Made by a program: the position numbers and the translations under genes
Shown: positions 1,816 to 19,955 of the stretch, in pieces
Layout of the letters: each line of letters starts with the position of its first letter
Position numbering within the stretch: position 1 is the stretch's first letter
From: a candidate division WOR_3 bacterium SM23_42
GTDB taxonomy: Bacteria; Hydrothermota; Tepidihabitantia; SM23-42
Direction: 5' to 3'
Assembly (NCBI GenBank): GCA_001303785.1
Contig: LJUJ01000004.1
Coordinates: 64,845 to 128,844 of the forward strand
DNA: 64,000 nucleotides
The notes under the pieces: model-generated
The model's database searches: none
What the model was told of the DNA's origin: nothing
What the model saw: only the letters and a program-made list of their open reading frames with translations

Positions 1816-1832
1816 TTCCCGCTACGCGGGAA
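1816..1832 (+). terminator. short hairpin (TTCCCGC-tac-GCGGGAA) immediately after the pcm stop; weak U-tract
   Basis: 7-bp perfect stem 6 nt after TAA. Downstream is attcgaaattcg rather than a clean T-run. Confidence 0.25.
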
Positions 1833-2027: not shown

Positions 2028-3365
2028 TTACATTTCCTCGATGAAGTCTGTTGAGATGTCGCCCGCTGCGTACTTTGGATGCTTCATTATTTTTTTGTGA
2101 AAGGGAATGGTGGTAGGGATCCCGTCAATCACGATTTCTTCAAGGGCACGATTCATTCGGGCTATCGCCTCGTCCCTTGAATTTCCATGACAGATAAGCT
2201 TACCGATTAGTGAGTCGTACTGACTCGGGATCACGTGCCCGGCAAAGATGTGGGTATCGAACCTTACCCCAATGCCTTGCGGCATATGAAAGAAAGAAAT
2301 CTTACCTGGCATGGGTACGAAGTTTCTGGCTGGGTCCTCGGCATTTATGCGACACTCAATCGCGTGACCGTGTAGCTCAACATCCTGTTGGTCGAATGCG
2401 ATTTTGTTGCCGAGTGCGATCTTGATTTGTTCCTTTACTATATCAACACCGGTTACCATCTCAGTTACCGGATGTTCGACCTGTATCCTCGTATTCATTT
2501 CCATGAAGTAGTAGTTCTTATCTTGGTCCATGAGAAACTCAATAGTGCCGGCCGATCGATAACCAATGCTCTGAGCTGCCTTCAATGCCGCTTCGATAAG
2601 CCTTTTCCTAAGGTTATCATCGACTGCCGGTGACGGCGATTCTTCAACCAGCTTCTGGTGACGTCGTTGGATTGAACACTCACGCTCGCCCAAGGCAACG
2701 ATTTTCCCGTGGTGATCGCCGAGAATCTGAACCTCGATATGGCGCGGTCGGTGGATAAATTTCTCTAAGTAGATCCTGTTGTCGCCAAATGCTGCCTTGG
2801 CTTCAGCCTGAGCGATTCGGAAACCGGCATCGAGTTCATCTTCATCGCGCGCCACGCGCATGCCTTTGCCACCGCCACCCGCCGCGGCTTTAAGAATCAC
2901 CGGGTATCCGATATTCCTGCAAAGCTTGCGGGCATCTTTTGCGTGTTCTATGTTACTTTTGCTGCCGGGTATGCCCTGCAGACCAGCTGCCTCCATGGTT
3001 TCTTTGGCCTGTATCTTGTCGCCCATCGTTCTGATGTGCGCGGGTGGCGGGCCGATAAAGATTATGCCGCACGATTCACATATCTCGGCGAATTCAGGGT
3101 TTTCGGCAAGAAAGCCGTAGCCTGGATGGATTGCCTTGGCACCGGTTATCTCGGCGGCACTGATTATTCTTGTGATGTTGAGATAACTTTCCTTACTTGG
3201 GGGAGGTCCAATGCAGACTGCTTCGTTGGCGAGACGGGCATGTAAAGATTCCGCATCTATCTCCGAATAGATGGCAACTGTTTTCAGATTTAGCTCATTA
3301 GCGGCACGTATGATGCGCAGGGCTATTTCGCCTCGGTTAGCAATGAGAATCTTCTCAAATTTCAT
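2028..3365 (-). CDS. accC: acetyl-CoA carboxylase biotin carboxylase subunit
   Basis: 445 aa. MKFEKILIANRGEIALRIIRA..., ATP-grasp motifs (GGGGKGMRV, EMNTRIQVEHPVTE) and a biotin carboxylase C-terminal domain. Confidence 0.95.
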   Translation of the reverse strand: MKFEKILIANRGEIALRIIRAANELNLKTVAIYSEIDAESLHARLANEAVCIGPPPSKESYLNITRIISAAEITGAKAIHPGYGFLAENPEFAEICESCGIIFIGPPPAHIRTMGDKIQAKETMEAAGLQGIPGSKSNIEHAKDARKLCRNIGYPVILKAAAGGGGKGMRVARDEDELDAGFRIAQAEAKAAFGDNRIYLEKFIHRPRHIEVQILGDHHGKIVALGERECSIQRRHQKLVEESPSPAVDDNLRKRLIEAALKAAQSIGYRSAGTIEFLMDQDKNYYFMEMNTRIQVEHPVTEMVTGVDIVKEQIKIALGNKIAFDQQDVELHGHAIECRINAEDPARNFVPMPGKISFFHMPQGIGVRFDTHIFAGHVIPSQYDSLIGKLICHGNSRDEAIARMNRALEEIVIDGIPTTIPFHKKIMKHPKYAAGDISTDFIEEM

Positions 3366-3399
3366 TTTGTGTCGACCGGGAGCAAATGTGTATTATTGT

Positions 3400-4518
3400 T
3401 TACTTGTTCTGATCTTTCTTCTCGAATTGTCCCCAGCCTCGCTCCGCGGTTTGCTCAATGCCGACGAGTCTCAGTTTGAATTCATCGGGATTCGTAACGG
3501 CTTGAATGGCATCATCATACGATATCAGACCATCCTTGTAGAGTTTGAATATTGCTTGATCAAAAGTCTGCATACCATATTGCCCAAAGCCATCCTCGAT
3601 CACCGATTGAATAAGCAGCGTCTTCACGGGATCTAAGAGATAATCCCTGACCGTGGGCGTTGCGACAAGAACCTCAACGGCCGGGATGCGACCTTTACCG
3701 TCGGCCCGTGGCAATAACCTGAGCGAGATCACCCCGATGAGGGTTGCGGCAAGAAGAACCCGTACGTGCTGATGTTGATGCGGTGGATAGAAAGAGATTA
3801 TGCGGTTGATGGTTTCGGTGGCATTCAGGGTATGAAGCGTAGAAAGCACTAAATGTCCGGTATCCGCGGCCTTCAGCGCGACATCCATTGTTTCCCGGTC
3901 TCTTATCTCGCCAATCAATATGACATCAGGATCTTGGCGCATGATATGTTTCAACGCGACTGAGAATGAAACAGTATCCATTAGGACTTCACGCTGACAG
4001 ACAATTGAGAGATTATCGCGGAAAAGGTATTCAATCGGATCTTCAATAGTGATGATATGGCGGGCAATATTCTCATTTATGTGCTCTATCATGGCGGCCA
4101 AGGTGGTTGATTTGCCACTACCGGTTGTGCCCGTACAAAGCATCAAGCCGCGCGGTTTGAGCGAGAGATCCTTGAGGATAGAAGGCAGGTTCAATTCTTC
4201 TGTTCTTCGCACGGACATCGGTATAGCCCGCATTGCGATGGCAATACTACCCCGCTGTAGAAATACATTCACCCTAAAGCGCCCAACGCCACGCACACCG
4301 ATGGCGAAATCCATTTCCTTCATACGTTCGAACATCTGCTGTTGAGAAGGAGTCATTATTTGATATGCCATTGCCTTTAAGCTTTCCGGGGTTAGAGATT
4401 CGCCTTTTTCTTCTGCCAACTTTCCATCAACCCTGAAAACCGGCGGTGAACCGGCCTTCAAATGAAGGTCCGAGGCATTCACTTTAACCATCTTTTCGAG
4501 TAGTGTTTTTAGTTCCAT
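3400..4518 (-). CDS. PilT/PilU-family type IV pilus retraction ATPase (third paralog; lacks a clear AIRNLIRE motif, so PilU-like)
   Basis: Walker A GTTGSGKSTT, Asp box, Walker B DVILIGEIRD, His box LVLSTLHT. The C-terminal TPTVRDYLLDP diverges from the AIRNLIRE motif. Sits between accB and accC. Confidence 0.85.
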   Translation of the reverse strand: MELKTLLEKMVKVNASDLHLKAGSPPVFRVDGKLAEEKGESLTPESLKAMAYQIMTPSQQQMFERMKEMDFAIGVRGVGRFRVNVFLQRGSIAIAMRAIPMSVRRTEELNLPSILKDLSLKPRGLMLCTGTTGSGKSTTLAAMIEHINENIARHIITIEDPIEYLFRDNLSIVCQREVLMDTVSFSVALKHIMRQDPDVILIGEIRDRETMDVALKAADTGHLVLSTLHTLNATETINRIISFYPPHQHQHVRVLLAATLIGVISLRLLPRADGKGRIPAVEVLVATPTVRDYLLDPVKTLLIQSVIEDGFGQYGMQTFDQAIFKLYKDGLISYDDAIQAVTNPDEFKLRLVGIEQTAERGWGQFEKKDQNK

Positions 4519-4539
4519 GTTACTCTCTCTTCTAGTATT

Positions 4540-5001
4540 CTATAAAGGTTCTACCAAGATAAGTTCCTGATTATATTCAACCGGATCTTCATTTTTGACT
4601 AGGATTTGCACGACCTTACCTGCAACATCGGATTCGATTTCGTTCATGAGTTTCATTGCTTCGACGATGCATACAACTTGGCCAGGTTTAATGACATCTC
4701 CAATTTCCACGTAGGAAGGTGCGTCCGGAGTCGGTGCCCGATAAAATGTCCCGACGATTGGCGAGCGTATCGCAGCGATGTTCTTCTTTGCCTCGGCTGG
4801 TTTTTCTGTGATTTCTTCTTTCCCCTCCTTGACCACCGGCTCAGAGATTCTTATGGTTTGTGTATTATTACTCAACTTGTTAATCTTGACCCTTCTGCCC
4901 CAAAAATCTGTAATCTCGATTTCCGACACAATACTTGTTTCTAAAATCCTCACGAGTTTTTCGATATCCCTTATTTTCATTTCAGCAATCCTGAGAGCCA
5001 C
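4540..5001 (-). CDS. accB: acetyl-CoA carboxylase biotin carboxyl carrier protein
   Basis: 153 aa. C-terminal biotinyl domain with the EAMKLMNEIE biotin-attachment motif. The N-terminal 25 nt overlap the upstream TPR gene. Confidence 0.9.
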   Translation of the reverse strand: MALRIAEMKIRDIEKLVRILETSIVSEIEITDFWGRRVKINKLSNNTQTIRISEPVVKEGKEEITEKPAEAKKNIAAIRSPIVGTFYRAPTPDAPSYVEIGDVIKPGQVVCIVEAMKLMNEIESDVAGKVVQILVKNEDPVEYNQELILVEPL

Positions 5002-6398
5002 TCTTGAAAGGATTTGAAGTCTTCTTCCTTGCTTTTTGTTGGCTCTTCTTTTTTCTCCAATTCTCTCTCTGGCTCGGGCTGTTGTGCCTTGTCAGGTGGC
5101 TCGACCTCGACTCCCGGGGTCGTTGTTTCTACCGGTTCCTGTGATGTAGCGGGCACGATTTCTTCTGCGGGTTCAGTTGTTTCAATAATCGGTGGTGGTG
5201 TTTCTTCGACTGGCGCAACCGGTTCCTCTTCAATCTCAGGAGACGTTGTCACCGTTGGCCTTGGTTCCACGGCTTCACCTATCGGCAATGGTTTTTCCGC
5301 TTCGCGTTCAGGGGAAGCAGTCTCAGGCAATATTGGTTCCCGTATTTCATCTGCCGGCAATGTCGTTTCAGGTTCGGGCTCGGCAGAGATGGGTTCAGCT
5401 GGTGTTGGCTCTAGCTTTGGTTCAAATGTTGCCAGTTCAATTTCTGGTGGCATGGTTTCGGGCTTGGGTGGCTCAGGTTCTGGTAATTCTTCCGTTACGT
5501 CAGCGACTGGCGCCCCTGGTTCCGGCTGCACGTCCAAGAGTGGAGTCGGCGCTACTTCGTGCGCCGGTTCCTCTCCAGAGGGTTTGCTCTCTTCCTCACT
5601 GGGTTGCGCCGCCACCTTTTCTGCAGCCTGCTCAAGCTCCTCAACTAGAAAGTCTTCCAAACTCTGGATGTCGTTTTGAACGGTTGGCGGTTTTTCTTCG
5701 GTCCCGGTATCCGATGCGCTTGGTGTCTCAGCCTTTTCAGCGGGCTCTTCAGCCGGTAGTTCTTCGGTTTTGAAAACCCTCTCAATCTGCAGGCTTTCTA
5801 TCTTTTCTTCCTCGATCCTGCGTTTTTTTTCGTTTATCGTTTTCTTCAGCGCAGCCACCCTCTGATTGAGAACCAAATCACTCGGGTCGGTGAAGAGCAG
5901 GTTCTCATATATCTTTAAGGCTTCTTTAAGATTACCTTGTTTCTCGTATTCCTCGGCCATGGCGACGGTATAAAGCGGTTCTTTACGCTGAAGAGCTTCC
6001 AACATCGATAGTTTTTCCTGCGCCGTGGTATCCATCGGATCGATGCTGACAATGCTCTTGTAGGCATGTATTTGACCTTTTTCATCTTTCAGTATCTCAG
6101 ATGTTTTTGCCAACATGCGGAGGGCGACTATGTTTTGTGGGTCTAGATCAATCGTCTTCTCAAAAGCGTCTCTTGCTTGTATGTAAGACCTTTTGTCGTA
6201 ATAGCATTTGCCGAGAATCAAGTAGGCAACTGGATACTGTGAGTGGTGCTGGAGACCCTTGTTGAGGACGTCCAGTGCCTCCTCGATCATGTTGTTCTTG
6301 CGATAGACGTCGGCAAGTTGTACGAAAATCCGTGATTTCGGATCCTTATTTAATTTGTCGCTCAGCCTTGCGATATCAGAAAAATCTGCTTCATTCAT
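4977..6398 (-). CDS. TPR repeat protein with long Pro/Glu-rich intrinsically disordered C-terminal half
   Basis: N-terminal ~200 aa have TPR-like repeats (YLILGKCYYDKRSYIQARDAFEKTIDLDPQN...). Roughly 270 aa of PEPEP/EEP low complexity follow. The opposite-strand ORFs 5014..5679 and 5192..5773 are antisense artefacts of this low-complexity region. Confidence 0.6.
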   Translation of the reverse strand: MNEADFSDIARLSDKLNKDPKSRIFVQLADVYRKNNMIEEALDVLNKGLQHHSQYPVAYLILGKCYYDKRSYIQARDAFEKTIDLDPQNIVALRMLAKTSEILKDEKGQIHAYKSIVSIDPMDTTAQEKLSMLEALQRKEPLYTVAMAEEYEKQGNLKEALKIYENLLFTDPSDLVLNQRVAALKKTINEKKRRIEEEKIESLQIERVFKTEELPAEEPAEKAETPSASDTGTEEKPPTVQNDIQSLEDFLVEELEQAAEKVAAQPSEEESKPSGEEPAHEVAPTPLLDVQPEPGAPVADVTEELPEPEPPKPETMPPEIELATFEPKLEPTPAEPISAEPEPETTLPADEIREPILPETASPEREAEKPLPIGEAVEPRPTVTTSPEIEEEPVAPVEETPPPIIETTEPAEEIVPATSQEPVETTTPGVEVEPPDKAQQPEPERELEKKEEPTKSKEEDFKSFQEWLSGLLK

Positions 6399-6442
6399 CT
6401 CATTCCTCAGTATAAATTATCTTATTCATAATATCTATTTTG

Positions 6443-7405
6443 TCAAGAACGAATTAAATTGAACGAATTCAAGATAACCTCTATTTTTGTGAAATAGTCA
6501 GTCTTACGCTCGCCAGGATTGAAAACCATTCCATCAATAATGTAGAGGGTTGCTCCATCGCTGAGGAAATAAGAAAGGAAAGGTCCGCCGGCTATGAGTG
6601 AGTCATTCTGCCAGACACCTCTGAGCCTAACTCCTTTGAGATTGGCGAACTCGATGGTTTCCGCTGTGGTCAGTTCCTTCAAGATGTAATCACCGTTGTA
6701 GTAGAGTTTGGTAAGCGAATCACGCTTTGCCAGGGCAAATTGCCCGTCGGGTTTTGTTCGCCTGGTTTCCTTGTAGAAGAATATGCTACGGTCGGGAAAG
6801 TGAGTGTGCATGTAGATGAAGTTGGCATCCTGATGGGTGGAGTCAATCAACCAGGCCTCGTTTATATCAAGCTTCATACCGTATCTCTTCAGTCGATCCT
6901 TCATCTTGCTACTGACCCCGGTTAAGTAGTAATTTTTCTTCACTCTCTGGTAATAATGTTCCTCCAATACCTGTGCGATGAGCTGGCCGTATTTTTCGAT
7001 ACCACGGGCGATGTGTGACTCATCCCTCGCTGCCAGTATGACCGTCAGTTGTCCGTCCGCCCACAGATTACTCAGTTTGAACAAGGTGAAGGTGTCTTTC
7101 TTGGTTGCCGCCCGCGCATCTTTACTCAGCATGTCATATATGTATTCGTCTTCCAGACTTCCGTACAGCAGAATAGCATGGTGGTTCTTATATGCTTCAA
7201 TGGCCGTGTCGCCCACGAATATGAAGTTGAATATTCCTTCTTCCTGCGGGACATAGTTGTACAGCTGAATGTTTTCATATACCTTATCCTCTTCGATTTG
7301 ACGCGCAATGACGATCACGTCGTTGCTTTTTCCGACGCTACGTGTTAATCGTGCACACGTCACAACCACTAGAAGCATGAGTAAGATAAGAACTGTGTTT
7401 TTCAC
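6443..7405 (-). CDS. hypothetical lipoprotein (possibly DUF4837-like)
   Basis: Signal peptide MKNTVLILLMLLVVVTCARL. No recognisable catalytic motifs. The DUF4837 family assignment is from memory only. Confidence 0.45.
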   Translation of the reverse strand: MKNTVLILLMLLVVVTCARLTRSVGKSNDVIVIARQIEEDKVYENIQLYNYVPQEEGIFNFIFVGDTAIEAYKNHHAILLYGSLEDEYIYDMLSKDARAATKKDTFTLFKLSNLWADGQLTVILAARDESHIARGIEKYGQLIAQVLEEHYYQRVKKNYYLTGVSSKMKDRLKRYGMKLDINEAWLIDSTHQDANFIYMHTHFPDRSIFFYKETRRTKPDGQFALAKRDSLTKLYYNGDYILKELTTAETIEFANLKGVRLRGVWQNDSLIAGGPFLSYFLSDGATLYIIDGMVFNPGERKTDYFTKIEVILNSFNLIRS

Positions 7406-7416
7406 TTATACCTCCT

Positions 7417-9495
7417 CTAGCCGATGCGCAGCAATTCGGCCCGGTCTGCCAAATTCCTTAAATGTGCCTTGATTACTTCGTTTTCGGGTCGGCTAATATT
7501 GGGATCCGTTTTAATCAATTCGAATGCGTCATCACGTGCTTGGAACAGCAATTCTCGGTCGTACTCGAGGTCACCGACTCTTATGTCTGGCAGGCCATGT
7601 TGTCTCTTGCCAAGAACTTCTCCAGGCCCCCGAAGTCTGATATCCTTCTGGGCAAGTGCAAAACCGTCGTTGTTGCGCTCGAAGAATTTTATGCGTTCAT
7701 ACGTCTCGGGCTGTACATAGCGATTTAAGACAAGAAAGCAGTAAGATTCCTGTGCGCCCCTGCCGATACGGCCTCTCAATTGATGCAATTGGGCAAGGCC
7801 GAAACGTTCAGGGTGTTCGATAAGCATGATCGTCGCATTGGGTATATCGACACCAACTTCGACGACGGTGGTGGCAACGAGGATCTCGATCTTGCCGAGT
7901 CGATATTCGTTCATGATATGCATTCTCTCCTTGGTATTGAGTCGGCCATGAATCACACCCACTGAGAAATTTGGGAAAGCGTCTGTTATCTCTTTAGTAA
8001 CTTCCTGTACAGATTTCAATTCCAGTTTTTCGGATTTCTCAATGATCGGACAAATGACAAAGGCTTGACGGCCTTGGGCCAGGATGTCTCTGATGAAACT
8101 AAATGTGGCCTTCTTATCTTTCTCTTTAACGATTTTTGTTATGACCTCGCCGCGTTTGGGTGGTTTTTCCTTGATTATTGAGATATCCAGATCACCATAC
8201 AAGGTCAGGGCGAGGGTTCTTGGTATGGGTGTGGCCGATAAAACGAGAAAATCCGGATTCACTCCTTTATTCACGAGTGCCGCACGTTGCATTACTCCGA
8301 ACCGGTGTTGCTCGTCGACGACCGCTAGTCCTAGGTTCTTGAAGGTGATGTCTTCTTCGATCAGGGCATGGGTGCCAAGTATTAACTTTGCCGTACCGGA
8401 AGCGATCATGTCGATTACTTCGGTGCGCTCCTTACCTTTTGTGCTACCGGTAAATAAATATGGTGTAACTCCTACGCTCTGTAGCATTTCATGGAGCACG
8501 ATGTAATGCTGTTCGGCAAGTATCTCGGTAGGTGCCATGAGCACCGCTTGATAGCCGTTCTCTATTGCGACCAGTATTGCATAGAGAGCGACCACGGTTT
8601 TCCCTGAACCCACATCTCCTTGCAGCAGCCGATTCATGGGTTTGGGGCGGGCCATATCAGTAACGATTTTCTCTACCGCTTGTGTTTGCCCTTGTGTCAG
8701 TGTGAAGGGAAGTGATTCGCGAAATCTCTTGGTTAATTCTCCATTATCTCTAAATGCGATGCCTGCTTTGCACTGCAGCTTGGCCTTCCGCCTGGCTAGG
8801 ATCAGTTCAAAAAAGAAAAATTCATCATAGACAAGACGTTTGCGCGCGGCATCTGCTTCTTCGAGACTCACGGGAAAATGTAAGGACTGGAGTGCTCTCT
8901 TCAGGGGGGCTAAATGGTTCTTCGCGATTACCGATTCGGGTAGGGTTTCGGCGACATCGCCCAGGCATTCGTCGAGGGCGATCCTTACTGCTCGGCGAAT
9001 GTCCCATATGCTTAACCCCTCGGTAAGTGGATAAATAGGAAATACCGAACCCCGCTTCTTCTGTGATATTTCCTCCTCGCCGATCAATTCATACAAAGGA
9101 TTGACGAATTGTTGACGACGGTAAAAACTGACCTTGCCGGATACCAGCAACCAATCACCCCTTTTGAATTTATTCTTCAAGTCCGGTCGGTTGAACCATT
9201 TCAGGACTACAGACCCAGTTTCGTCGCGTAGTACAACGTTGACGAGGCTCATGTGTTTTCTTGTCCGGCGTGCTTCGACCAGTTGTGCCTTACCAATGAC
9301 GGTTGCCTGGTCATTTATTCTTATGTCCGCGATCTTGGATACTGTTGAATGGTCGACGTATCTTCGTGCGACCAGGTGAATTAGATCGTCCACCGTTGTG
9401 ACGCCGACTTTTTCGAAGTATCGTGAACGTTTCGGCCCGATACCTTTGATATACTGAACCGGGCTATCGAGACGGAGAAATGTTTTCTTGGTCAC
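7417..9495 (-). CDS. recG: ATP-dependent DNA helicase RecG
   Basis: 692 aa. N-terminal wedge domain. Helicase motifs GDVGSGKTVVA, DEQHRFG and a C-terminal helicase domain. Start overlaps the upstream pilT stop by 1 nt. Confidence 0.95.
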   Translation of the reverse strand: MTKKTFLRLDSPVQYIKGIGPKRSRYFEKVGVTTVDDLIHLVARRYVDHSTVSKIADIRINDQATVIGKAQLVEARRTRKHMSLVNVVLRDETGSVVLKWFNRPDLKNKFKRGDWLLVSGKVSFYRRQQFVNPLYELIGEEEISQKKRGSVFPIYPLTEGLSIWDIRRAVRIALDECLGDVAETLPESVIAKNHLAPLKRALQSLHFPVSLEEADAARKRLVYDEFFFFELILARRKAKLQCKAGIAFRDNGELTKRFRESLPFTLTQGQTQAVEKIVTDMARPKPMNRLLQGDVGSGKTVVALYAILVAIENGYQAVLMAPTEILAEQHYIVLHEMLQSVGVTPYLFTGSTKGKERTEVIDMIASGTAKLILGTHALIEEDITFKNLGLAVVDEQHRFGVMQRAALVNKGVNPDFLVLSATPIPRTLALTLYGDLDISIIKEKPPKRGEVITKIVKEKDKKATFSFIRDILAQGRQAFVICPIIEKSEKLELKSVQEVTKEITDAFPNFSVGVIHGRLNTKERMHIMNEYRLGKIEILVATTVVEVGVDIPNATIMLIEHPERFGLAQLHQLRGRIGRGAQESYCFLVLNRYVQPETYERIKFFERNNDGFALAQKDIRLRGPGEVLGKRQHGLPDIRVGDLEYDRELLFQARDDAFELIKTDPNISRPENEVIKAHLRNLADRAELLRIG

Positions 9496-10565
9496 TATGT
9501 TTTCGAAAGATGTTCAAGTTCCTTGTGAAAGGTGTCAGGTTTTAAGGCCTTACGCAGTGCCTCCTCTTTTGTTGTAATTCTTCTTTTTACCAATTTTGCC
9601 AGGCAGGCGTCAAATGCAATCATGCCTTGTTGTCGTTGAGTTTGTAGTATCGATCCGATCTGGTAAGTCTTGGCTTCACGGATCAAGTGTCTCACTGAAG
9701 GTGTCGCAATTAGTATTTCATATGCTGCAACTCTTCCCGTACCATCGGCACGCTTCAGAAGATTCTGTGATACTACACAGAGTAAATTCAATGAGAGTTG
9801 CATCCTGATCTGTCCCTGCTGATGAGGAGGGAAAACGTCGATCATACGGTCGATGGTTGATACGGAATCCGAAGTATGCAGGGTTGTGACCACAACGTGT
9901 CCAGTTTCCGCAGCCGTGACTGCGAGCGAAATTGTCTCAAGGTCTCTCATTTCACCGACGAGAATCACATCTGGGTCTTGACGTAAAACAAATTTAAGAG
10001 CATTGGCAAAGGAGTGCGTATCGCGCCCAACCTCACGCTGGGTGACCAACGCCATTTTGTTCTCTTGAATGAATTCTATGGGGTCTTCAACGGTGACAAT
10101 GTGGCATTTGTCATTTTCGTTGCGGTGGTTGATCAGTGCAGCCTGAGTGGTCGACTTACCACAGCCAGAAGGTCCAGTGACGATAATCAGACCACGCGGT
10201 CGCAGCATGATACTTTTTAGAATTGCTGGGAATCTTAAATCGTCGAGCGTAGGCACGTGTGCGGGGATCGATCTGAGCACCATGCCCGACGCGCCCTGTT
10301 GGCGAAACACGTTAACACGAAAACGGGCGACACTAGGTTCTTCGTATGACAGGTCGATTTCTTTAAGCGATTGGAATTCGTCGAGTTGACCTTTGGTGAG
10401 TATTGCCGAGATGCCCGATTCGATGTCCGCGGCGGTCATGGGCGTTGAATCCAATGTTACAAGGTCACCATTTATGCGCACGGTTGCGGGCGTGCCTACC
10501 TTAAGGATAAGATCAGAAGCACCTTTATCAATCTGCGTTCTCATCAATTCATGGATTCTTGCCAT
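9495..10565 (-). CDS. pilT: type IV pilus twitching-motility ATPase PilT
   Basis: Walker A GPSGCGKSTT, Walker B DVILVGEMRD, His box VVTTLHT. PSVRHLIRE matches the AIRNLIRE-type motif. Confidence 0.9.
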   Translation of the reverse strand: MARIHELMRTQIDKGASDLILKVGTPATVRINGDLVTLDSTPMTAADIESGISAILTKGQLDEFQSLKEIDLSYEEPSVARFRVNVFRQQGASGMVLRSIPAHVPTLDDLRFPAILKSIMLRPRGLIIVTGPSGCGKSTTQAALINHRNENDKCHIVTVEDPIEFIQENKMALVTQREVGRDTHSFANALKFVLRQDPDVILVGEMRDLETISLAVTAAETGHVVVTTLHTSDSVSTIDRMIDVFPPHQQGQIRMQLSLNLLCVVSQNLLKRADGTGRVAAYEILIATPSVRHLIREAKTYQIGSILQTQRQQGMIAFDACLAKLVKRRITTKEEALRKALKPDTFHKELEHLSKT

Positions 10566-10566
10566 G

Positions 10567-11631
10567 CTACATTATCCTTTCGAATTCCTCGGGATGAGAG
10601 GAATGAGCAACTGCTTCCTCGAAATCGATTAATCCCTTGCGAAACATATTTTTCAAGCATTGATCCATCGTGATCATACCCATGCGTGAACCGGTCTGAA
10701 TCGCGGTGAAAATCTGGTGTGTCTTGGCTTCGCGGATGGCGCTTCTGATTGCCGGTGTGCAAATCATGACCTCGAACGCGGGGATTCGGCCGGCATCGTT
10801 TTTTCTGCGCAGTAGTGTTTCGGTAATAACCGCCTGTAAGGTCATCGAGAGCTGCAGGCGAATCTGTGATTGATGGGAAGGTGGGAAGACGTCGATGATC
10901 CTGTCGACTGTCTGTACTGCATCTATGGTATGTAATGTTGAGAAAACGAGATGCCCAGTTTCCGCGGCGGTGATGGTTTCGGCTACGGTCTCGAGATCAC
11001 GCATCTCGCCGACAAGAATGATGTCAGGGTTCTGTCTGATAACTCTACGCAGGGCCTCACTGTAAGAATTCGTGTCGATGCCTACCTCTCGCTGCTCGAT
11101 GATTGAGTTTTTATCGCGGTGTAAGAATTCTATGGGGTCTTCGACGGTTATCACATGCTTTCTCGTATTTTGGTTGATGTGTTCAAGGATTGCTGCCAAG
11201 GTTGTTGATTTGCCGCTTCCGGTCGGACCGGTCACTAGTACTAAACCCCGAGGTAATTCTGCGATTTTCTTAAAAACATCGGGGAGATTTAATTCGTCAA
11301 TTGTCTTAATCTTGAGCGGTATAGTACGCATTACCGCGCCGATATGGTTCATTTCTTTGAAACAATTGACCCTAAATCGCGCGACCCCTGAGATTTCATA
11401 GGCCATATCAAATTCTAGATTTTCCTCGAACGCCTTTTTCTGGACCGGGCTCATCATGCCGAAGATGAGTGTCTCCAGGTCTCGATCATCGAGTTTCGTG
11501 TTTTCTGTTTTGACTAAGCTGCCAGCGATGCGATATATCGGCGGTTCACCGTACCGCAGGTGCAAGTCAGACCCTTCCTGCAAAACAAGCTGCTCCAGGA
11601 GGGCATCGAGGTCGACTCTTGGGTTCGTCAT
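10567..11631 (-). CDS. pilT: type IV pilus twitching-motility ATPase PilT
   Basis: Walker A GPTGSGKSTT, Walker B DIILVGEMRD, His box LVFSTLHT. PAIRSAIRE is AIRNLIRE-like. Tandem with the next pilT, with a 1-nt gap. Confidence 0.9.
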   Translation of the reverse strand: MTNPRVDLDALLEQLVLQEGSDLHLRYGEPPIYRIAGSLVKTENTKLDDRDLETLIFGMMSPVQKKAFEENLEFDMAYEISGVARFRVNCFKEMNHIGAVMRTIPLKIKTIDELNLPDVFKKIAELPRGLVLVTGPTGSGKSTTLAAILEHINQNTRKHVITVEDPIEFLHRDKNSIIEQREVGIDTNSYSEALRRVIRQNPDIILVGEMRDLETVAETITAAETGHLVFSTLHTIDAVQTVDRIIDVFPPSHQSQIRLQLSMTLQAVITETLLRRKNDAGRIPAFEVMICTPAIRSAIREAKTHQIFTAIQTGSRMGMITMDQCLKNMFRKGLIDFEEAVAHSSHPEEFERIM

Positions 11632-11844
11632 GCGCTCCGAATCCCCGATTTGCTTGAGTTGTCTCTCAAAATCGTAGAATTAAAGTATCCGTCCATATCG
11701 AAATTTCCTTTAGTTATATAGCTGCTTCGTTCCATATTCAACTTGAGTTATTCAAGAATAATAGTCAATACTGCGTTATTTGTCAAGAAAAATATCCGGA
11801 ATACAGGTTGTCCCTCGGTCAAATGAGACGGGGTGTTCGTAATG

Positions 11845-13155
11845 TTAATACGCCATTTTGGTCCGCGACACCGAGAGACATACGCCGATAGCCATGAAGC
11901 ATGAGAGCAATGCGGAACCACCATAGCTAATGAATGGCAAGGGTACTCCTGTGACCGGTAGCAGACCCATGGTTACGCCGAGATTGACAAAGGTCTGGTA
12001 TCCAATCCATGTCATCACACCGCTGACAAATATACCCGAGAATCGGTTCCTTGTTTCTTTTGCCAGCACGAGTAAGCGGTATGTCAGATATCCATAAATC
12101 GCGATGACGATGATGATTCCGATCAGACCGAATTCCTCACCCAGACACGAGAATATGAAATCTGTATGACGCTCGGGTAAGAATTCAAGTTTTTTCTGCG
12201 TGCCTGAGAGAAATCCTTTGCCGAAAAACCGCCCCGAGCCAATGGCGATTTTTGACTGGATGATCTGCCAAGACATTCCTTGGGGGTCTACCCAAGGCGA
12301 GAAGAATGAAACGATTCTCTTTTGCTGGTACACTTTGAGGGAATTCCAGACCAGGGGCATGATGAGTCCTACTAATGAATTGCTAACCAGCCCATATATT
12401 AGATCGGTAAGTTGCTTTCTGAAATACAACACAATAAGCAGAAGTACCATATAGATAGCCCAGACGTAGATTGAAAAACTCGCGGCCGCCGAAATTATGG
12501 GTGAGAAGAGAATGAGAATTTTGAGCCCGGACATTCCAGCCCAATAGCTCATAACGATCAATATCGGCAAGAAGATCTGCGCCGCACCTAGGTCTGGTTC
12601 GACAAAGATTAGTAACGCAGGTAAACCAGCAATGACAATCGGTGCAAGCATATCAGAGAAGCTCTGGAGTTTTTTCTTGGTCGCCAAATAATTCGCGAGC
12701 ATGAGGACGGTGGCGAACTTCGCAAACTCGGATGGTTGTATGGAGAATTCACCCAGTCGAATCCATCGCTTCGGATACACATCGCTCTTGAGGAGAATGA
12801 TGAAGATCAGAAAGATTGATGCAAGGTAGATGAGCGGTGTTAGATTAGCCCAGATGCGGGGTGAAATTCTGGAGAAGACCAGAGCAACGAAAACACTGAA
12901 TACGAGCCAGACGATTTGCCGGGCCATTAGTGCCGAGCCTGCGGTCGAATATATCATCATGACGCCGAGTAGCGAAAGGGCGCCTACCGCCGTGATGATG
13001 CTGAGATCAATCTTCTTGAACACTGGTGCCTTGCTGGAGCACAGCCGCGATCTCGTGTTGCCTTTTTGAATTAAGATACGATTTGATGATTTTACCGGTA
13101 ATCGGAGCGGCCACGCTTGCCCCGTGGCCGGCATTCTCAGCGATAAGGCACACAA
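11845..13155 (-). CDS. rodA: SEDS-family peptidoglycan glycosyltransferase RodA
   Basis: About 10 transmembrane segments with FtsW/RodA signature regions (ILILFSPIIS..., GSGRFFGKGFLSGTQKKLEFLPERHTDFIF). Directly downstream of PBP2. The first ~44 codons overlap mrdA; a GTG at 13023 (V45) is the likelier start, so true extent is probably 11845..13023. Confidence 0.8.
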   Translation of the reverse strand: MCALSLRMPATGQAWPLRLPVKSSNRILIQKGNTRSRLCSSKAPVFKKIDLSIITAVGALSLLGVMMIYSTAGSALMARQIVWLVFSVFVALVFSRISPRIWANLTPLIYLASIFLIFIILLKSDVYPKRWIRLGEFSIQPSEFAKFATVLMLANYLATKKKLQSFSDMLAPIVIAGLPALLIFVEPDLGAAQIFLPILIVMSYWAGMSGLKILILFSPIISAAASFSIYVWAIYMVLLLIVLYFRKQLTDLIYGLVSNSLVGLIMPLVWNSLKVYQQKRIVSFFSPWVDPQGMSWQIIQSKIAIGSGRFFGKGFLSGTQKKLEFLPERHTDFIFSCLGEEFGLIGIIIVIAIYGYLTYRLLVLAKETRNRFSGIFVSGVMTWIGYQTFVNLGVTMGLLPVTGVPLPFISYGGSALLSCFMAIGVCLSVSRTKMAY

Positions 13156-14758
13156 GTATCACTGGGTCGGCTGCCGGTGCATAGCCAACAAAAAGCGAGT
13201 GGTCTTCACCGTGCGGATTCTGACTCGTCCCGGTCTTGCCGCACACCTCAACGTTGGGGACCCGAGCCAGCGTGCCAGTACCGCGGGCAACGACGCCGGC
13301 GAGTGCTTCTTTCACGATGTCTATTGCCTCACTAGATACGTCCTTGGTGGAGTATGTTGTGTCAGGTTTCTCTATGACATGTGGGATGGGTATTTTCCCC
13401 TTGTTGGCAAAAAGTGTGTAGGCACAAGCGAGCTGGAGTGGGGTTACGAGGAGGTCACCTTGACCGATGCTCAGATTGAATATGTGCCCGGTGGTCCAGT
13501 TGCTGCCATAGCGTGCCTCAAACCACTTACGGTCAGGAAGCAATCCTTGTTTCTCGTTGGGCAGGTCGATACCTGTTTTCTTGCCAAAACCTATTCTGCT
13601 TGCGCGGTCAAAGAGCGTATCGATGCCAATAAACCTACCCAGCTGATAGAAATAGATGTCGCAGGAATGGACGATTGCCCCGTGTAGATCCAGGCTCCCA
13701 TGTTTTTTCCAACACTTGAAGATACGCCGGCCGAGTCGGTACTCACCCGCACACCAGTCAAATCGTTGTTTTTCATTTATGAGCTTTGAGTCGAGTGCAG
13801 CAAGGGCAACGAACGGCTTGAATGTTGAGCCACATGGATAGCAGCTCATGATGGCACGATTATACATTGGTGCATTCGGGTCTTTGTGTAGAATATCCCA
13901 TTCAAGCTTCTGTATACCGTGGGTGAAGAGGTTTGGGTCGAAGCCCGGTTTCGAGTAGAGCACTAAGATTTCTCCGCTCTGAGGGTTGAGACATACACAA
14001 GCTGCCTTTTCGTAATCTTCAAGATAGACGGCCACCGATTCGCTTAGGGAGATGTCTACGGTTGTAAGAAGATCTTCACCCGCGGTCGGCGGGATGCTTC
14101 TCTTCTCGGTTATTTTGCCTACCTCCTTGCCGCGGGCATCTACCTCCACATATTCTACGCCCCGGATGCCTTTAAGCATACCTTCGTAATATTCTTCGAG
14201 TCCCATCTTGCCGATATAGTCACCGATGGAATACGTCTTGTCACTTTCTAACTCTCTATCCGTAATTTCACCAACATAGCCGATGAGGTGAAAGAGCAAT
14301 TCTCCATAAGGATAATTTCTCAACGGCTCGACGCCTACTTCAACACCACTTAAGACATCAATGCGTTCTTCGATCAGTGACAGCTGCTCGTACGAGATGT
14401 CATGAGCGATTTTCACCGGGTTATAAGGATTTTTCTCGATTTTGCTTTTTTCGATGATCGTCGCGCCGTCTGTGTCGAGGATGCTCGACAGCCGTTCGAG
14501 GGTAGTTGAGTCGATTGCCGCTCTGACGACTGATACATAGAAACCAGGTCTTGTATTAGCGATTTCCACCCCGTTGCGATCGAAGATTCTACCGCGTGGT
14601 GCCGCGACATATTTCATCCGGATACGGTTCTTTTCAGATAAACGGGAGTATTTCTTGCCTTCAAATACTTGCAGTTTAATCGACCATATTATTATTACAG
14701 CTGCTAGCAGTACAACTACGTTACGGATGATTTTGAATTTTATTAACTTCTCATCCAT
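13007..14758 (-). CDS. mrdA: penicillin-binding protein 2 (elongasome transpeptidase)
   Basis: 583 aa. N-terminal TM anchor, PBP dimerisation domain, and transpeptidase motifs STFK (SXXK), SCD/SxN-like and KTGT. Confidence 0.9.
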   Translation of the reverse strand: MDEKLIKFKIIRNVVVLLAAVIIIWSIKLQVFEGKKYSRLSEKNRIRMKYVAAPRGRIFDRNGVEIANTRPGFYVSVVRAAIDSTTLERLSSILDTDGATIIEKSKIEKNPYNPVKIAHDISYEQLSLIEERIDVLSGVEVGVEPLRNYPYGELLFHLIGYVGEITDRELESDKTYSIGDYIGKMGLEEYYEGMLKGIRGVEYVEVDARGKEVGKITEKRSIPPTAGEDLLTTVDISLSESVAVYLEDYEKAACVCLNPQSGEILVLYSKPGFDPNLFTHGIQKLEWDILHKDPNAPMYNRAIMSCYPCGSTFKPFVALAALDSKLINEKQRFDWCAGEYRLGRRIFKCWKKHGSLDLHGAIVHSCDIYFYQLGRFIGIDTLFDRASRIGFGKKTGIDLPNEKQGLLPDRKWFEARYGSNWTTGHIFNLSIGQGDLLVTPLQLACAYTLFANKGKIPIPHVIEKPDTTYSTKDVSSEAIDIVKEALAGVVARGTGTLARVPNVEVCGKTGTSQNPHGEDHSLFVGYAPAADPVILVCLIAENAGHGASVAAPITGKIIKSYLNSKRQHEIAAVLQQGTSVQED

Positions 14759-15165
14759 ACGCCGAAATTGATCTTATTTAGAACTAGAATGGTTGGAAAA
14801 AATGCGAGAATTGCATAGCCGATTTGTGTAAAGCTGATCGGCGAGGATAAGATGATGTTTGTTACAGCTAATTTGCTGAGAAAAAAAACGATAAAAGTGG
14901 TAAAAGTCGTTAGGGGATTCAGTACCAGATACTTCTTGAGATAGAGCAGCGATTGCGTGAAAACAATATAGATTAGTGTGTTGATTCCGAGTCGGATAGG
15001 GTAGTAGAGGTCAAACAGCAGCCCGGCGATGGAGGAGAAGACTAGTGCGAATCGTTCATCTTCGTGTATGATGATGAAGAAGACTATTGCTGTTACGATA
15101 TCCACAAATGCACTGAACGGCAGCACAACATAGAGGGCAACGAAATACACCAAGTATCGTATCAT
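14743..15165 (-). CDS. mreD: rod shape-determining protein MreD (small polytopic membrane protein)
   Basis: 140 aa with 4-5 hydrophobic helices. Position between mreC and mrdA is the conserved mre operon order. Assignment is by context. Confidence 0.55.
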   Translation of the reverse strand: MIRYLVYFVALYVVLPFSAFVDIVTAIVFFIIIHEDERFALVFSSIAGLLFDLYYPIRLGINTLIYIVFTQSLLYLKKYLVLNPLTTFTTFIVFFLSKLAVTNIILSSPISFTQIGYAILAFFPTILVLNKINFGVWMRS

Positions 15166-15926
15166 GGCTGGTTGATCGTATGGGATTCGTGCTCGTTAAG
15201 TATCAAGTATAAGGAAACAAGGCGATTCACCTGTACCGCGGGCGTAACGTACACATGCTTGAAGAATAGGTCCTCTGATTCCGAAATTCTATGAACCGTG
15301 CCGATTAGTATGCCCTTTGGAAAAAACTCGCTCATGCCTGAGGTTTGTATGGAATCACCAACATTAATTCTGTCCGTGTGACGGATATAATCAAACATGA
15401 GGTTTTTTTGACTCTTGATGACCCCATGAATGCTTGTATTGATGTCGAGGGCACTGACCGAAAAACCGTTGTTTTCGATGGTTTCGACGATGCTGCTCGT
15501 CGGTCCAGCATGTCTGATTTTGCCAACAAAACCATCAACGGCTATTACCGGTTGATTCATGGCGACACCATTTTCAGCACCCTTATCGATGTATAAATAG
15601 CCATTTATGTTGAGGGGATCACGGCCGATGACCGAGGCCTTTAGCAATCTCAGGTCCTGGGATTGCATGTTAGTAGTATCAAGATTGAATCGGTCGCGCA
15701 GCTGGGCATTCTCCAACTTCAGTTGATTGACCAGGATTTCAAGTTTTTCGATTCGAACTTTGGAGATTGCCAAATATTCCAGTATGTTTGTCGTGATTTT
15801 TATGGGAACAAGCAGAAATGATGATAGCGTGCGTGACAAAACGACATTAGCATTTTTGTGCAGAAAGACCGGTACTGCGGATGCGATGAGCAAAAAAAGG
15901 AAGAGTATTATCTGCTGACGGCGCAA
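15162..15926 (-). CDS. mreC: rod shape-determining protein MreC
   Basis: N-terminal TM, then coiled coil (LENAQLRDRFNLD) and a C-terminal beta-domain (VIAVDGFVGKI..., GDSIQTSGMSEFFPKGILIGTV). Confidence 0.8.
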   Translation of the reverse strand: MRRQQIILFLFLLIASAVPVFLHKNANVVLSRTLSSFLLVPIKITTNILEYLAISKVRIEKLEILVNQLKLENAQLRDRFNLDTTNMQSQDLRLLKASVIGRDPLNINGYLYIDKGAENGVAMNQPVIAVDGFVGKIRHAGPTSSIVETIENNGFSVSALDINTSIHGVIKSQKNLMFDYIRHTDRINVGDSIQTSGMSEFFPKGILIGTVHRISESEDLFFKHVYVTPAVQVNRLVSLYLILNEHESHTINQP

Positions 15927-16982
15927 CTATGCTCTCTTCATAGTGTATATTACTTTTTCGTACTTGTTCAGATCTTCAAGAATCTTTCCTGCCCCTATGA
16001 CAACCACTTTGTTTGGCTCATCGGCAATCGTCACAGGCAGATTGGTTTCTTCCCTGACTAGGGTATCGACTCCTCTTAGTAATGAACCGCCACCCGCCAT
16101 GTAGATGCCGTTGTTTACGATATCCGCGGCTAATTCTGGAGGCGTTTTCTCCAAGGTGAGGCGTATCGTTTCGGTAATCATTGACAAGGGTTCTTGTATT
16201 GCTTCTCTAACTTCGTGACTGGTGAGTTTAACCGTTTTAGGAATACCTGATACCAGATCTCTTCCCTTCACCTCGAGCGCTTTTTCTTCGACGGTTGGAA
16301 ATGCATTACCAATGGCGATTTTTATGGTTTCTGCGGATTGTTCGCCGATGATTAGATTATAGTTTTTCTTGATATATTGAACGATGGCGTCATCCATTTC
16401 GTCACCGGCGATACGAATCGAGCTATTCGTTACGATCCCGGAAAGCGCAATAACGGCTATTTCCGTCGTACCGCCCCCAATATCTATTATCATGTTGCCA
16501 GTTGGTGAATGTACTGGTAAGCCAATGCCGATCGCCGCTGAGATGGGTTCTGGAACCAAGAAGACCTCGCGCGCACCAGCGGCTTCTGCAGAATCGCGGA
16601 CCGCTCTTTTCTCAACCTCGGTGATGCCGGACGGTACGCAGATAAGCACGCGAGGCCGCATCAAGAGCCGTTTCTTTTGAACCTTCTCGATGAAGATTCG
16701 CAGTAATAGTTCAACCATTTCGAAGTCGGCAATGACACCGTCTTTCATCGGTCTTATTGCTTTTATTTCATTGGGTGTTCTGCCGAGCATCTGCTTTGCC
16801 TCGTCGCCGATGGCGAGACATCGCTTGGTCTTCGTGTCTATGGCGACGACGGTTGGTTCATCGAGCACTATCCCGCGGCTGTTGATATATATCAAAGTCG
16901 TACGTGTTCCGAGGTCGATTGCTATATCGCTCAAGAACTGGCTCTTAATACTTCGAAATAATGAAAATATGTTGAATGCCAC
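15927..16982 (-). CDS. mreB: rod shape-determining actin homolog MreB
   Basis: 351 aa. DIAIDLGTRTTLIY, actin-fold phosphate-1/2 and adenosine motifs (IDIGGGTTEIAVI, MAGGGSLLRG). Confidence 0.95.
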   Translation of the reverse strand: MAFNIFSLFRSIKSQFLSDIAIDLGTRTTLIYINSRGIVLDEPTVVAIDTKTKRCLAIGDEAKQMLGRTPNEIKAIRPMKDGVIADFEMVELLLRIFIEKVQKKRLLMRPRVLICVPSGITEVEKRAVRDSAEAAGAREVFLVPEPISAAIGIGLPVHSPTGNMIIDIGGGTTEIAVIALSGIVTNSSIRIAGDEMDDAIVQYIKKNYNLIIGEQSAETIKIAIGNAFPTVEEKALEVKGRDLVSGIPKTVKLTSHEVREAIQEPLSMITETIRLTLEKTPPELAADIVNNGIYMAGGGSLLRGVDTLVREETNLPVTIADEPNKVVVIGAGKILEDLNKYEKVIYTMKRA

Positions 16983-17053
16983 TTATGTGCCTCCTTTGTT
17001 AGTAAAATGATATGTAGTTTTCTCTGAAAGTCAAGGCAAAAGTGGTAGGTAGA

Positions 17054-17081
17054 TTGACAAAGCGTGTTTGATGTGTACAAT
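17054..17081 (+). promoter_or_regulatory. sigma-70-type promoter (TTGACA-N16-TACAAT) for the small basic ORF
   Basis: TTGACA at 17054-17059, TACAAT at 17076-17081. SD GGAGAAGGAGG at 17082-17092, ATG at 17099. Confidence 0.4.
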
Positions 17082-17098
17082 GGAGAAGGAGGTTCAGC

Positions 17099-17269
17099 AT
17101 GAAAGAGCAGAGAAAAAAGGGTGAGCGACGAAAAAAGGAGAGACGCAAACTCCTGACGGAAAAGCAATTTCGTAAGCTTATCGAGGAGGGTAAGGTATCT
17201 AAATATGACGAAAGAGTATGGAAAAAGAGGCGCAAGACAAAGAGGCGTAGGAAGCAGATGGGTGTATAG
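17099..17269 (+). CDS. small (56 aa) highly basic Lys/Arg-rich protein, not in the ORF track
   Basis: ATG 7 nt after a strong SD (GGAGAAGGAGG) and behind a consensus promoter. Translation: MKEQRKKGERRKKERRKLLTEKQFRKLIEEGKVSKYDERVWKKRRKTKRRRKQMGV. Below the 60-aa cutoff of the supplied track. The opposite-strand ORFs 16999..17328 and 16931..17167 are considered spurious. Confidence 0.45.
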   Translation: MKEQRKKGERRKKERRKLLTEKQFRKLIEEGKVSKYDERVWKKRRKTKRRRKQMGV

Positions 17270-17321
17270 CGGATGATACGCATGTGCCTTGGGATATGCT
17301 CGGAATTGCGTGACAAAGACA

Positions 17322-17349
17322 TTGACATGCTATCTTATATGGGTATAAT
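17322..17349 (+). promoter_or_regulatory. sigma-70-type promoter (TTGACA-N16-TATAAT) upstream of the HU/IHF gene
   Basis: TTGACA at 17322-17327, TATAAT at 17344-17349. About 85-nt leader. AGGAGG SD before the ATG at 17434. Confidence 0.4.
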
Positions 17350-17433
17350 ACGCTGTTACTGTTCAGGTGTGTTGTTTTCAGCTCGGGGCAGTTTTATATT
17401 TCAAATATAAGGGTATATTGACAGCAAGGAGGA

Positions 17434-17733
17434 ATGATGCGAAGGGAATTTTTGATCGAAAAAATCGCCGAGAAGATTGGCCCAGCGTATACTAAAACAG
17501 ATATCGAAAAGTTGATTGATACGTTTTTGGATACGCTCTTTGAAATCTTGATACAAAACAAACGAGTCGAGTTGCGTAGGTTTGGAACTTTCGAGCTCCG
17601 AAAGAGGCCGGGCCGGAGTGCAAAGGCCCCCAAGAGTGGCAAGGTTTATACTCTTGCTGATCGATATGTACCATTCTTCCGTCCATCAAAGATATTCAAG
17701 AATATGGTTCAGGAAAGGACAAGGCCAGAGTAG
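17434..17733 (+). CDS. HU/IHF-family DNA-binding protein
   Basis: 99 aa. RRFGTFELRKRPGRSAKAPKSGKVYTLADRYVPFFRPSK matches the HU/IHF beta-arm (GFGxFxxRxRxxRxxRNPxTGxxxxIxxxxxxxFKxGK). Confidence 0.85.
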   Translation: MMRREFLIEKIAEKIGPAYTKTDIEKLIDTFLDTLFEILIQNKRVELRRFGTFELRKRPGRSAKAPKSGKVYTLADRYVPFFRPSKIFKNMVQERTRPE

Positions 17734-19464: not shown

Positions 19465-19530
19465 ATTTTTCTCTCCTTTCGCTACTGATGACAGATAACT
19501 GATAACAGATGACTGCTTGGCATAGAGTGA

Positions 19531-19944: not shown

Positions 19945-19955
19945 ACAGTTATCCG

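Follow-up and report, generated by a model that had tools for sequence, protein, structure and literature searches.

What is a gene for a PilT-family ATPase doing between accB and accC, the genes for the biotin carboxyl carrier protein (BCCP) and the biotin carboxylase of acetyl-CoA carboxylase (ACC)? The question is posed by a 64,000-nucleotide stretch of the candidate division WOR_3 bacterium SM23_42 (assembly GCA_001303785.1, contig LJUJ01000004.1, positions 64,845 to 128,844 of the forward strand; hereafter the window), in which a first-pass annotation made from the letters alone had pointed out the arrangement. The 372-residue PilT-family protein is here called PilT3 and its gene pilT3. 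Comparison of homologous loci indicated that the accB-pilT-accC order is old and deeply conserved across WOR-3, TA06-type lineages and Gemmatimonadales, and on these comparisons we favour the view that pilT3 is carried along as a passenger and does not serve ACC.

The genes of the block all lie on the minus strand and follow one another, in the order of transcription, as a gene for a tetratricopeptide repeat (TPR) protein, accB, pilT3 and accC. This was read from the list of open reading frames (ORFs) and the sequence. The product of accC (2028-3365; 445 amino acids) matched TIGR00514 with 701.2 bits (cut-off 626.5) as well as all three Pfam domains, that of accB (4540-4980) matched TIGR00531 with 134.5 bits (cut-off 115.2), and that of pilT3 (3400-4518; 1119 nt) matched TIGR01420 with 460.2 bits (cut-off 319.1), its residues 3-346 aligning with positions 2-343 of the 343 in the model. 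The accB gene is not followed directly by accC: the 1119-nt gene intervenes, with spacers of 21 nt on the accB side (4519-4539) and 34 nt on the accC side (3366-3399), as first described. Upstream, accB overlaps the 3' end of the TPR gene (4977-6398; 473 amino acids, with TPR Pfam matches) by 4 nt, in an ATGA that joins the accB ATG (4980-4978) to the TPR stop codon (4979-4977); this overlap had also been recognized, together with the Pro/Glu-rich tail of about 270 residues in the TPR protein (19% Pro, 24% Glu; the head is about 190 residues). The mechanically called accB ORF is longer (4540-5001) and begins with GTG. The GTG at 5001 was rejected as the start, and the ATG at 4980 chosen, because the alignment to the BCCP model TIGR00531 begins at residue 8, which is this ATG, and because the orthologues share it. 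The same 4-nt overlap was computed in WOR-3 loci L001, L090 and L091 (loci fetched for comparison carry L numbers), and tblastn coordinates of metagenomic WOR-3-type loci agree with it. Two plus-strand ORFs (5014-5679 and 5192-5773) were taken as antisense artefacts, their Ser/Gly-rich translations lying opposite the low-complexity Pro/Glu coding region. The adjacency of accB and accC does have exceptions, for example the streptococcal accB-fabZ-accC, and its earlier description as almost universal was overstated.

Is the embedded protein still an intact PilT? Its Walker A motif GTTGSGKST (residues 130-138; 4105-4131), Asp box EDPIE (159-163), Walker B motif DVILIGEIRD (198-207, with Glu E204) and His box TGHLVLSTLHT (220-230) are all intact, and all four are invariant in an alignment of 11 PilT3 orthologues (alignment A1). 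At the site that reads AIRNLIRE in other PilTs, located by alignment with Pseudomonas aeruginosa PilT, PilT3 reads TVRDYLLD (3631-3654), followed by a one-residue insertion, P297; the consensus of its clade at this site is T[IV][KR]EYLLDPVKT, and the Gemmatimonadales form of the clade signature is DNIRD. The protein also continues for 25 residues past the end of P. aeruginosa PilT (KLRLVGIEQTAERGWGQFEKKDQNK; 3403-3477), an extension recognized on visual inspection of the sequences and HMMER alignments. The loss of AIRNLIRE had been reported in the first-pass annotation, as had two canonical pilT genes 5 kb upstream in the same direction; these are confirmed as an AIRNLIRE-type tandem at 10567-11631 and 9495-10565, with TIGR01420 scores of 468 and 444 bits, reading AIRSAIRE and SVRHLIRE, respectively, at the same site. 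PilT3 thus appears to be a hexameric motor ATPase of the PilT family that is intact and comes from a subfamily lacking AIRNLIRE. Within WOR-3 it is the best-conserved protein of the block (83-97% identity, compared with 73-87% for accC and 52-71% for accB), and at the sequence level the gene is clearly under purifying selection.

Neighbour-joining (NJ) trees were computed from 97 PilT-like sequences. To the window's own three paralogues were added orthologues taken from the fetched loci, a further 66 loci that a genome scan had supplied and references from the Protein Data Bank (PDB), namely P. aeruginosa PilT and PilU, 10my, Aquifex PilT, Thermus PilT2 and two Geobacter PilTs. PilT3 fell in the AIRNLIRE-less part of the tree (bipartition support 64/100), apart from the characterized PilTs of P. 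aeruginosa, Aquifex and Geobacter (PilT4), and the tandem PilTs of the window grouped with the AIRNLIRE-type PilTs. A separate long branch held P. aeruginosa PilU and 10my, with PilT3 not among them. The best PDB match of PilT3 was Thermus PilT2 (5fl3; 397 bits), with which it shares 54.5% identity, compared with 43.9% for P. aeruginosa PilT, 41.7% for PilU and 42-45% for its own two paralogues. Strict orthology with PilU was rejected on the tree position and these identities. The earlier label "PilU-like" therefore holds for the loss of AIRNLIRE, the GMQTFDQ motif and the C-terminal extension, and fails for ancestry and position, as PilT3 does not branch with Pseudomonas PilU and its gene does not directly follow pilT. 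Where a division of the three paralogues between PilT and PilU clades had been envisaged, the two tandem proteins went with the AIRNLIRE types and PilT3 came nearest to Thermus PilT2 and a recA-linked clade, not the PilU clade. In protein searches the closest PilT homologues were all labelled WOR-3, and a search with a Gemmatimonadales PilT returned only relatives of at least 89% identity, none from a cultured species.

How old is the arrangement? In the window the block ends a run of eight same-strand genes, pilT-pilT-recG-DUF4837-TPR-accB-pilT-accC, in which the largest gap is 44 nt. The tandem stands at the head of this co-directional array, and recG (7417-9495) and the DUF4837 gene (6443-7405), both assigned with Pfam, join it to the TPR gene. 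The entire array is present in the complete WOR-3 genome CP070834 and likewise in the WOR-3 locus L091, and the tandem is kept in WOR-3 loci. A second complete WOR-3 genome, CP070664 (L090), has recG-DUF4837-TPR-accB-pilT followed by an incomplete accC match (CP070664.1; L090 11684-12517), which ends after 277 of 445 residues at a place where no gene is called; this accC could be a pseudogene or carry a frameshift. A metagenome scan seeded with the TPR protein yielded 37 WOR-3-type loci. TPR-accB-pilT was found in all 32 with enough downstream DNA and accC in all 27 that reached further, and the recG-DUF4837 order was repeated in most of those with enough upstream DNA. In a second WOR-3-type group (L002-L004 and L129, one of them labelled Cloacimonadota) accB, pilT and accC follow one another at distances of 10 and 5 nt. 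The flanking genes (about 3000-19500) are wholly different and encode an SBP_bac_5-containing methyl-accepting chemotaxis protein (MCP), a multi-PAS sensor, a 642-residue double DnaA-like ATPase, a PatA_N-TPR protein, CheR, CheD and CheB. Judging by gene content, the three-gene block has been relocated as a unit into a chemosensory neighbourhood in this group.

Beyond WOR-3, TA06-type loci showed efp-accB-pilT-accC (efp encodes elongation factor P, EF-P), in one case preceded by the TPR protein and pepP. In one TA06 locus (L007 3707-8245) accC is followed directly by a PAS histidine kinase and a sigma-54 response regulator, a PilS/PilR-like pair, and then by three pilin-like genes with GspH and N_methyl domains. 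A genome scan with the PilT alignment, in which the matches listed contained no WOR-3 genome, supplied Gemmatimonadales loci and outgroups; at least eight Gemmatimonadales species genomes had (efp-)accB-pilT-accC, and in L010 the order was TPR, aroQ, pepP, efp, accB, pilT, accC, a comB-like gene and ftsK. Two departures from the order are informative: an Edwardsbacteria locus has pilT-accC without accB, and TA06-type loci L008/L009 (5442-7119) have efp, a 1-nt gap, pilT, a comB-like gene, ftsK and lolA, with no accB or accC inside the 13-kb locus. Among the matches listed, none of 66 other PilT-like loci (within L010-L089) had accB, accC or efp directly adjoining. The acc- or efp-linked PilTs all came together in a single clade that held no other sequence, with an NJ bootstrap of 90 in one run and 84 in another; the WOR-3/TA06 half and the Gemmatimonadales half of this clade were each supported at 100. 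The order is kept across lineages whose PilT3 proteins share only 56-59% identity, while the flanks differ. No description of accB-pilT-accC was found in the searchable literature.

These comparisons bear directly on what had first been proposed. A lineage-specific operon fusion is upheld and is older than was supposed, given the shared order in WOR-3, TA06-type lineages and Gemmatimonadales and the monophyly of the acc-linked PilTs. The contrary expectation, that relatives would have accB and accC adjacent and the pilT-like gene elsewhere, is the opposite of what was found in all three groups. A recent rearrangement or assembly artefact was rejected, and the reading as a recent event or artefact is already refuted: the same order recurs in several phylum-level lineages, where dozens of independent assemblies and two complete genomes show it, the acc-linked PilTs form an exclusive, monophyletic clade, and the G+C content is even over the block. 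The wider reading that also admits chance, with each gene transcribed alone, can point to longer pilT-to-accC gaps in some relatives and to weak promoter-like matches within pilT3, and we consider it very improbable. Over all loci, accB-to-pilT spacers are 3-85 nt and pilT-to-accC spacers -1 to 136 nt, except for two of 179 and 614 nt; the promoter-like matches, of 9 out of 12 consensus positions, lie at 3824-3797 and 3542-3514.

Is pilT3 transcribed together with its neighbours? Across the gaps of -4, 21 and 34 nt that separate TPR gene, accB, pilT3 and accC, consensus scans found no terminator-like hairpin on the coding strand from the start of the TPR gene to the stop of accC, and neither spacer carries a promoter-like or terminator-like site, so the terminator/promoter pair that had been considered as a possible break in the block was not seen. 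The 44-nt gap before the TPR gene holds a candidate sigma-70-like promoter (TTGACA-16 nt-TAAGAT; 6419-6446, minus strand; 10 of 12 consensus positions); about 200 nt downstream of accC lies a candidate terminator-like hairpin with a weak T-run (1816-1832, minus strand). An Rfam scan of the window gave no match and hence no sign of a riboswitch or leader. The two consensus scans say little, because promoter-like and terminator-like sites both occur at chance density. Co-transcription of pilT3 with accB and accC is nevertheless likely, on account of the tight spacing, the upstream ATGA overlap and the precedent in Geobacter.

That precedent belongs to the neighbouring clade, in which the subfamily occupies a different operon. 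Outside the acc-linked clade, the nearest relatives of PilT3 are encoded after recA in Nitrospira and before recX-alaS in another lineage. The neighbouring clade spans Nitrospirota, Desulfobacterota including Geobacter, Acidobacteriota and Myxococcota (bootstrap 74). In a tblastn survey of the matches listed, adjacency to recA and/or recX/alaS was found in 30 of its 48 tips (for example L015, L018, L022, L027, L030, L032, L034 and L039) and in no tip of any other clade. A recA-pilT1-recX order has been published for PilT1 of Geobacter sulfurreducens (GSU0146), where it is conserved in Geobacteraceae and co-transcribed with recA; this PilT1 failed to rescue a P. aeruginosa delta-pilT strain, and a role in DNA uptake was proposed (Speers et al. 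2016, PMC5065972). The breadth of recA-pilT-recX-alaS beyond Geobacteraceae seems under-appreciated, and literature searches on this order and on Gemmatimonas pilT returned nothing relevant. The pilT3 gene itself is not flanked by recA and recX, and neither the window nor any of the WOR-3 and TA06-type loci examined showed recA, recX or alaS. Gemmatimonadales have an uninterrupted recA-recX-alaS, without pilT inside, 3.5-7 kb downstream of accC. From the recA-recX-alaS and accBC placements together, this PilT subfamily appears habitually to reside inside core housekeeping operons, the accBC version being a new variant of the pattern.

The TPR protein recurs in acc-linked loci of WOR-3, TA06-type lineages and Gemmatimonadales; that of the window is 100% identical to AMJ83_03300 of SM23_42. 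An AlphaFold2 model divides it into a TPR domain (residues ~20-208; 5775-6341; predicted local distance difference test score, pLDDT, ~90), a disordered Pro/Glu-rich linker (residues ~209-455; 5034-5774; assigned from composition and a pLDDT mostly below 40) and a C-terminal segment, EEDFKSFQ[DE]WLSGLLK, that is predicted to form an amphipathic helix (4980-5033; pLDDT ~87), all encoded on the minus strand. In the linker the model contains one short helix (residues 248-263; pLDDT 51-67). Among 12 family members (alignment A2) the 190-residue TPR head is nearly invariant, with the motif DPKSRIFVQLADAYRK, and the C-terminal segment is near-invariant. The linker between them is Pro/Glu/Ala-rich and hypervariable, differs in length by more than 200 residues and is unalignable apart from one short conserved mid-motif (column F250). 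The hydrophobic moment of the C-terminal helix is 0.52, compared with 0.24 +/- 0.12 in shuffles. Orthologues in Gemmatimonadales and TA06-type lineages have the same architecture and end in D[FL]xxFQxWLxxLK. A Foldseek search of the model against the PDB gave generic TPR matches only (designed consensus TPRs, OGT and MamA). On sequence comparison the protein is a distinct conserved family and not a stray TPR gene, and from the model it looks like a TPR module tethered by a long flexible linker to the membrane or to a partner. In WOR-3 its stop overlaps the accB start; elsewhere its gene heads the array upstream of pepP-efp. The gene (4977-6398 in the window; L010 3848-7436; L130 1336-4684) encodes PP and PPP runs, and its neighbours in Gemmatimonadales and TA06-type lineages include pepP, for an Xaa-Pro aminopeptidase, and efp, for the polyproline translation factor. 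The TPR protein may be an EF-P-dependent client, or the proximity of pepP and efp may be coincidental.

What, then, would PilT3 do, and why is it kept where it is? On the whole we lean towards an account in which PilT3 is an accessory, probably PilT-dependent motor ATPase whose gene rides as a passenger in a housekeeping operon after a single insertion. With its catalytic motifs preserved, its AIRNLIRE motif gone and a C-terminal extension present, PilT3 can be read as an accessory motor for retraction of a type IV pilus or type IV filament, like Thermus PilT2 or proteobacterial PilU. Models place the AIRNLIRE motif at the PilT-PilC interface; PilU, which lacks it, needs PilT to reach the machine and is reported to contact PilT through its C-terminal extension (bioRxiv 10.1101/2025.10.30.685630). 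By analogy, PilT3 most likely depends on a canonical PilT for access to the platform protein, and the two PilTs encoded 5 kb upstream are the obvious candidates for this partner. In a single insertion the gene would have come to split accB from accC within an ancestral (TPR-tether)-(aroQ)-pepP-efp-accB-accC array, either before WOR-3, TA06-type lineages and Gemmatimonadales diverged from a common ancestor or in one of them, with early passage to the others. The gene would then have been retained as a passenger on the accB/accC transcript and, because it is read from that transcript, PilT3 would be made constitutively with growth. It would be hard to remove, because a break would sever accC from its promoter, and would be shielded from rearrangement while useful, because accB and accC must remain together. 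An obligate partnership with ACC is not expected, as one lineage keeps efp-pilT with accBC lost or moved and the neighbouring clade uses another operon, and a biochemical link between PilT3 and the carboxylase is probably absent.

The conserved order could instead be adaptive, with motor expression tied to a growth-rate-controlled accBC/efp transcript, or with the ATPase working physically alongside ACC or the membrane-tethered TPR protein; in this way pilus dynamics would follow membrane-lipid supply. Survival of the order at 56-59% PilT3 identity despite changing flanks fits such an embedding, as do the movement of the three-gene block as a unit into the MCP/PatA_N-TPR/CheR/CheD/CheB neighbourhood, the leading position that the TPR-tether family holds in this array alike in WOR-3, TA06-type lineages and Gemmatimonadales, and the 4-nt overlap of the TPR stop with the accB start in WOR-3. 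Yet the TA06-type efp-pilT without accB or accC in its 13-kb locus and the Edwardsbacteria pilT-accC without accB argue against it, and so does the neighbouring clade, which sits between recA and recX and so suggests a subfamily without a fixed metabolic partner; moreover, the accB-accC pairing by itself accounts for the retention of any inserted gene. Adaptive embedding is therefore held to be unlikely. The first-pass annotation had proposed co-regulation of fatty-acid biosynthesis with pilus retraction; as a functional design this gained no specific support; the efp-pilT lineage and the recA-linked clade point to a passenger, and a functional link between lipids and pili is, on balance, unlikely. 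A broader version seems a little less likely again: the AIRNLIRE-less PilT and the membrane-tethered TPR protein would form a conserved module functionally tied to efp-accB-accC, for example coupling pilus retraction or envelope remodelling to membrane-lipid supply or to EF-P-dependent translation, and the subfamily would have a housekeeping role apart from classical pili. If true, such a role would explain why its two main clades reside in accBC and recA-recX operons.

A second question is whether PilT3 acts in retraction at all. It might be a traffic ATPase for DNA uptake or recombination, or serve some other type IV-filament or secretion function; we give this only a small chance. The nearest characterized clade is recA-linked, Geobacter PilT1 did not rescue P. 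aeruginosa delta-pilT and has been proposed to act in DNA uptake (PMC5065972), recG belongs to the same WOR-3 array, and AIRNLIRE, the motif modelled at the PilT-PilC interface, is absent. However, PilU and Thermus PilT2 also lack AIRNLIRE yet act in retraction, failure to complement pilT is what would be expected of a PilT-dependent accessory motor, and no competence gene adjoins the acc-linked copies in the loci examined.

Several observations weigh against the accessory-motor and passenger account. No pilB, pilC, pilMNOPQ or pilin gene was found in the first 49 kb of the window, so that only the three PilTs lead us to assume that this genome encodes a pilus machine. The candidate promoter and hairpin flank the block as consensus matches at chance density, shuffles contain at least as many promoter-like sites overall, and the consensus scanned may not be that of WOR-3. 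All trees are NJ and not maximum likelihood, and the grouping of the recA-linked with the acc-linked clade has an NJ support of 48/100, or 59/100 with Fibrobacter L025 free to move. Finally, conservation of gene order across phyla often signals functional or physical interaction, and a link to ACC, EF-P or the TPR protein is conceivable.

The surroundings of the array were also annotated. The pilT tandem is immediately preceded, on its own strand, by mreB, mreC, mreD, a PBP2 gene and rodA (11845-16982, minus strand), which with the pilT-acc array make a co-directional run of about 15 kb of housekeeping and pilT genes. Just beyond accC and a PCMT gene (1073-1810) are two Roadblock/LC7 (MglB-like) genes on the plus strand (33-740 and 737-1039) that overlap by 4 nt, the first of which encodes an acidic, Glu/Val/Pro-rich N-terminal extension of about 120 residues. 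Farther upstream, a minus-strand cluster at 17881-28567 encodes a 1025-residue NuoF-like/pyridine-nucleotide-disulphide-oxidoreductase fusion, 2Fe-2S and 4Fe-4S proteins, an [FeFe]-hydrogenase-like large subunit, two small HATPase_c proteins, a PHP-domain protein and a 23S-rRNA-IVS-family protein; as a whole it resembles a locus of the bifurcating-hydrogenase type.

Additional PilT paralogues occur often and, for the most part, have no explanation; the acc-linked clade is a clean and deeply conserved case. The pattern is robust and testable, and suggests a subfamily expressed from core housekeeping transcripts and not from pilus gene clusters. It also suggests that accB-accC, among the most stable of bacterial gene pairs, can carry a passenger across phylum-level divergence, with an uncharacterized TPR protein, bearing a long disordered linker and an amphipathic C-terminal helix, travelling with the same array. 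As a handle for testing accessory motors it offers Gemmatimonadota, which have cultured members, and Geobacter genetics for the recA-linked relative.

How does the locus compare with known systems? The accBC operon of Escherichia coli likewise has accB before accC on one strand with short gaps, and both genes here pass the NCBIfam equivalog cut-offs; in WOR-3, however, a 1.1-kb unrelated gene splits the pair and the TPR stop overlaps the accB start by 4 nt. The aroQ-pepP-efp-accB-accC neighbourhood of Gemmatimonadales and TA06-type lineages resembles neighbourhoods known in many bacteria. PilU of P. aeruginosa and Vibrio cholerae (PDB 9n32) resembles PilT3 in having lost AIRNLIRE, kept GMQTFDQ and gained a C-terminal extension, and it coexists with a canonical PilT on which it depends, as the window likewise encodes canonical PilTs. 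PilU differs in its identity of 41.7% and separate long branch, in an extension of 36 residues, compared with 25 in PilT3, that shows no similarity past the first few residues, and in the position of its gene directly downstream of pilT, whereas pilT3 lies about 5 kb away with recG, the DUF4837 gene, the TPR gene and accB between. PilT2 of Thermus thermophilus (5fl3), a secondary retraction motor beside a primary PilT1 (PMC12393216), shares with PilT3 the one-residue insertion after the degenerate AIRNLIRE site, YGM[QR]TFDQ and the "EF[KR]L" start of the extension, but it branches with an Actinomycetota group outside the acc-linked clade. Geobacter PilT1 is alike in genomic setting: it is an AIRNLIRE-less paralogue whose gene lies away from the pil cluster and separates two housekeeping genes that otherwise adjoin, and pilT3 shows the same kind of insertion between accB and accC, on the same strand and with gaps of 21 and 34 nt. 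Its host operon is recA-recX-alaS and not accB-accC, its identity to PilT3 is about 50-52%, and its published conservation is limited to Geobacteraceae. Geobacter pilT1 is co-transcribed with its upstream gene (PMC5065972); the same may hold for pilT3, given its spacing and the lack of terminator-like sites. In the NJ tree the Geobacter-type loci L030 and L032 sit in the clade nearest to the acc-linked one.

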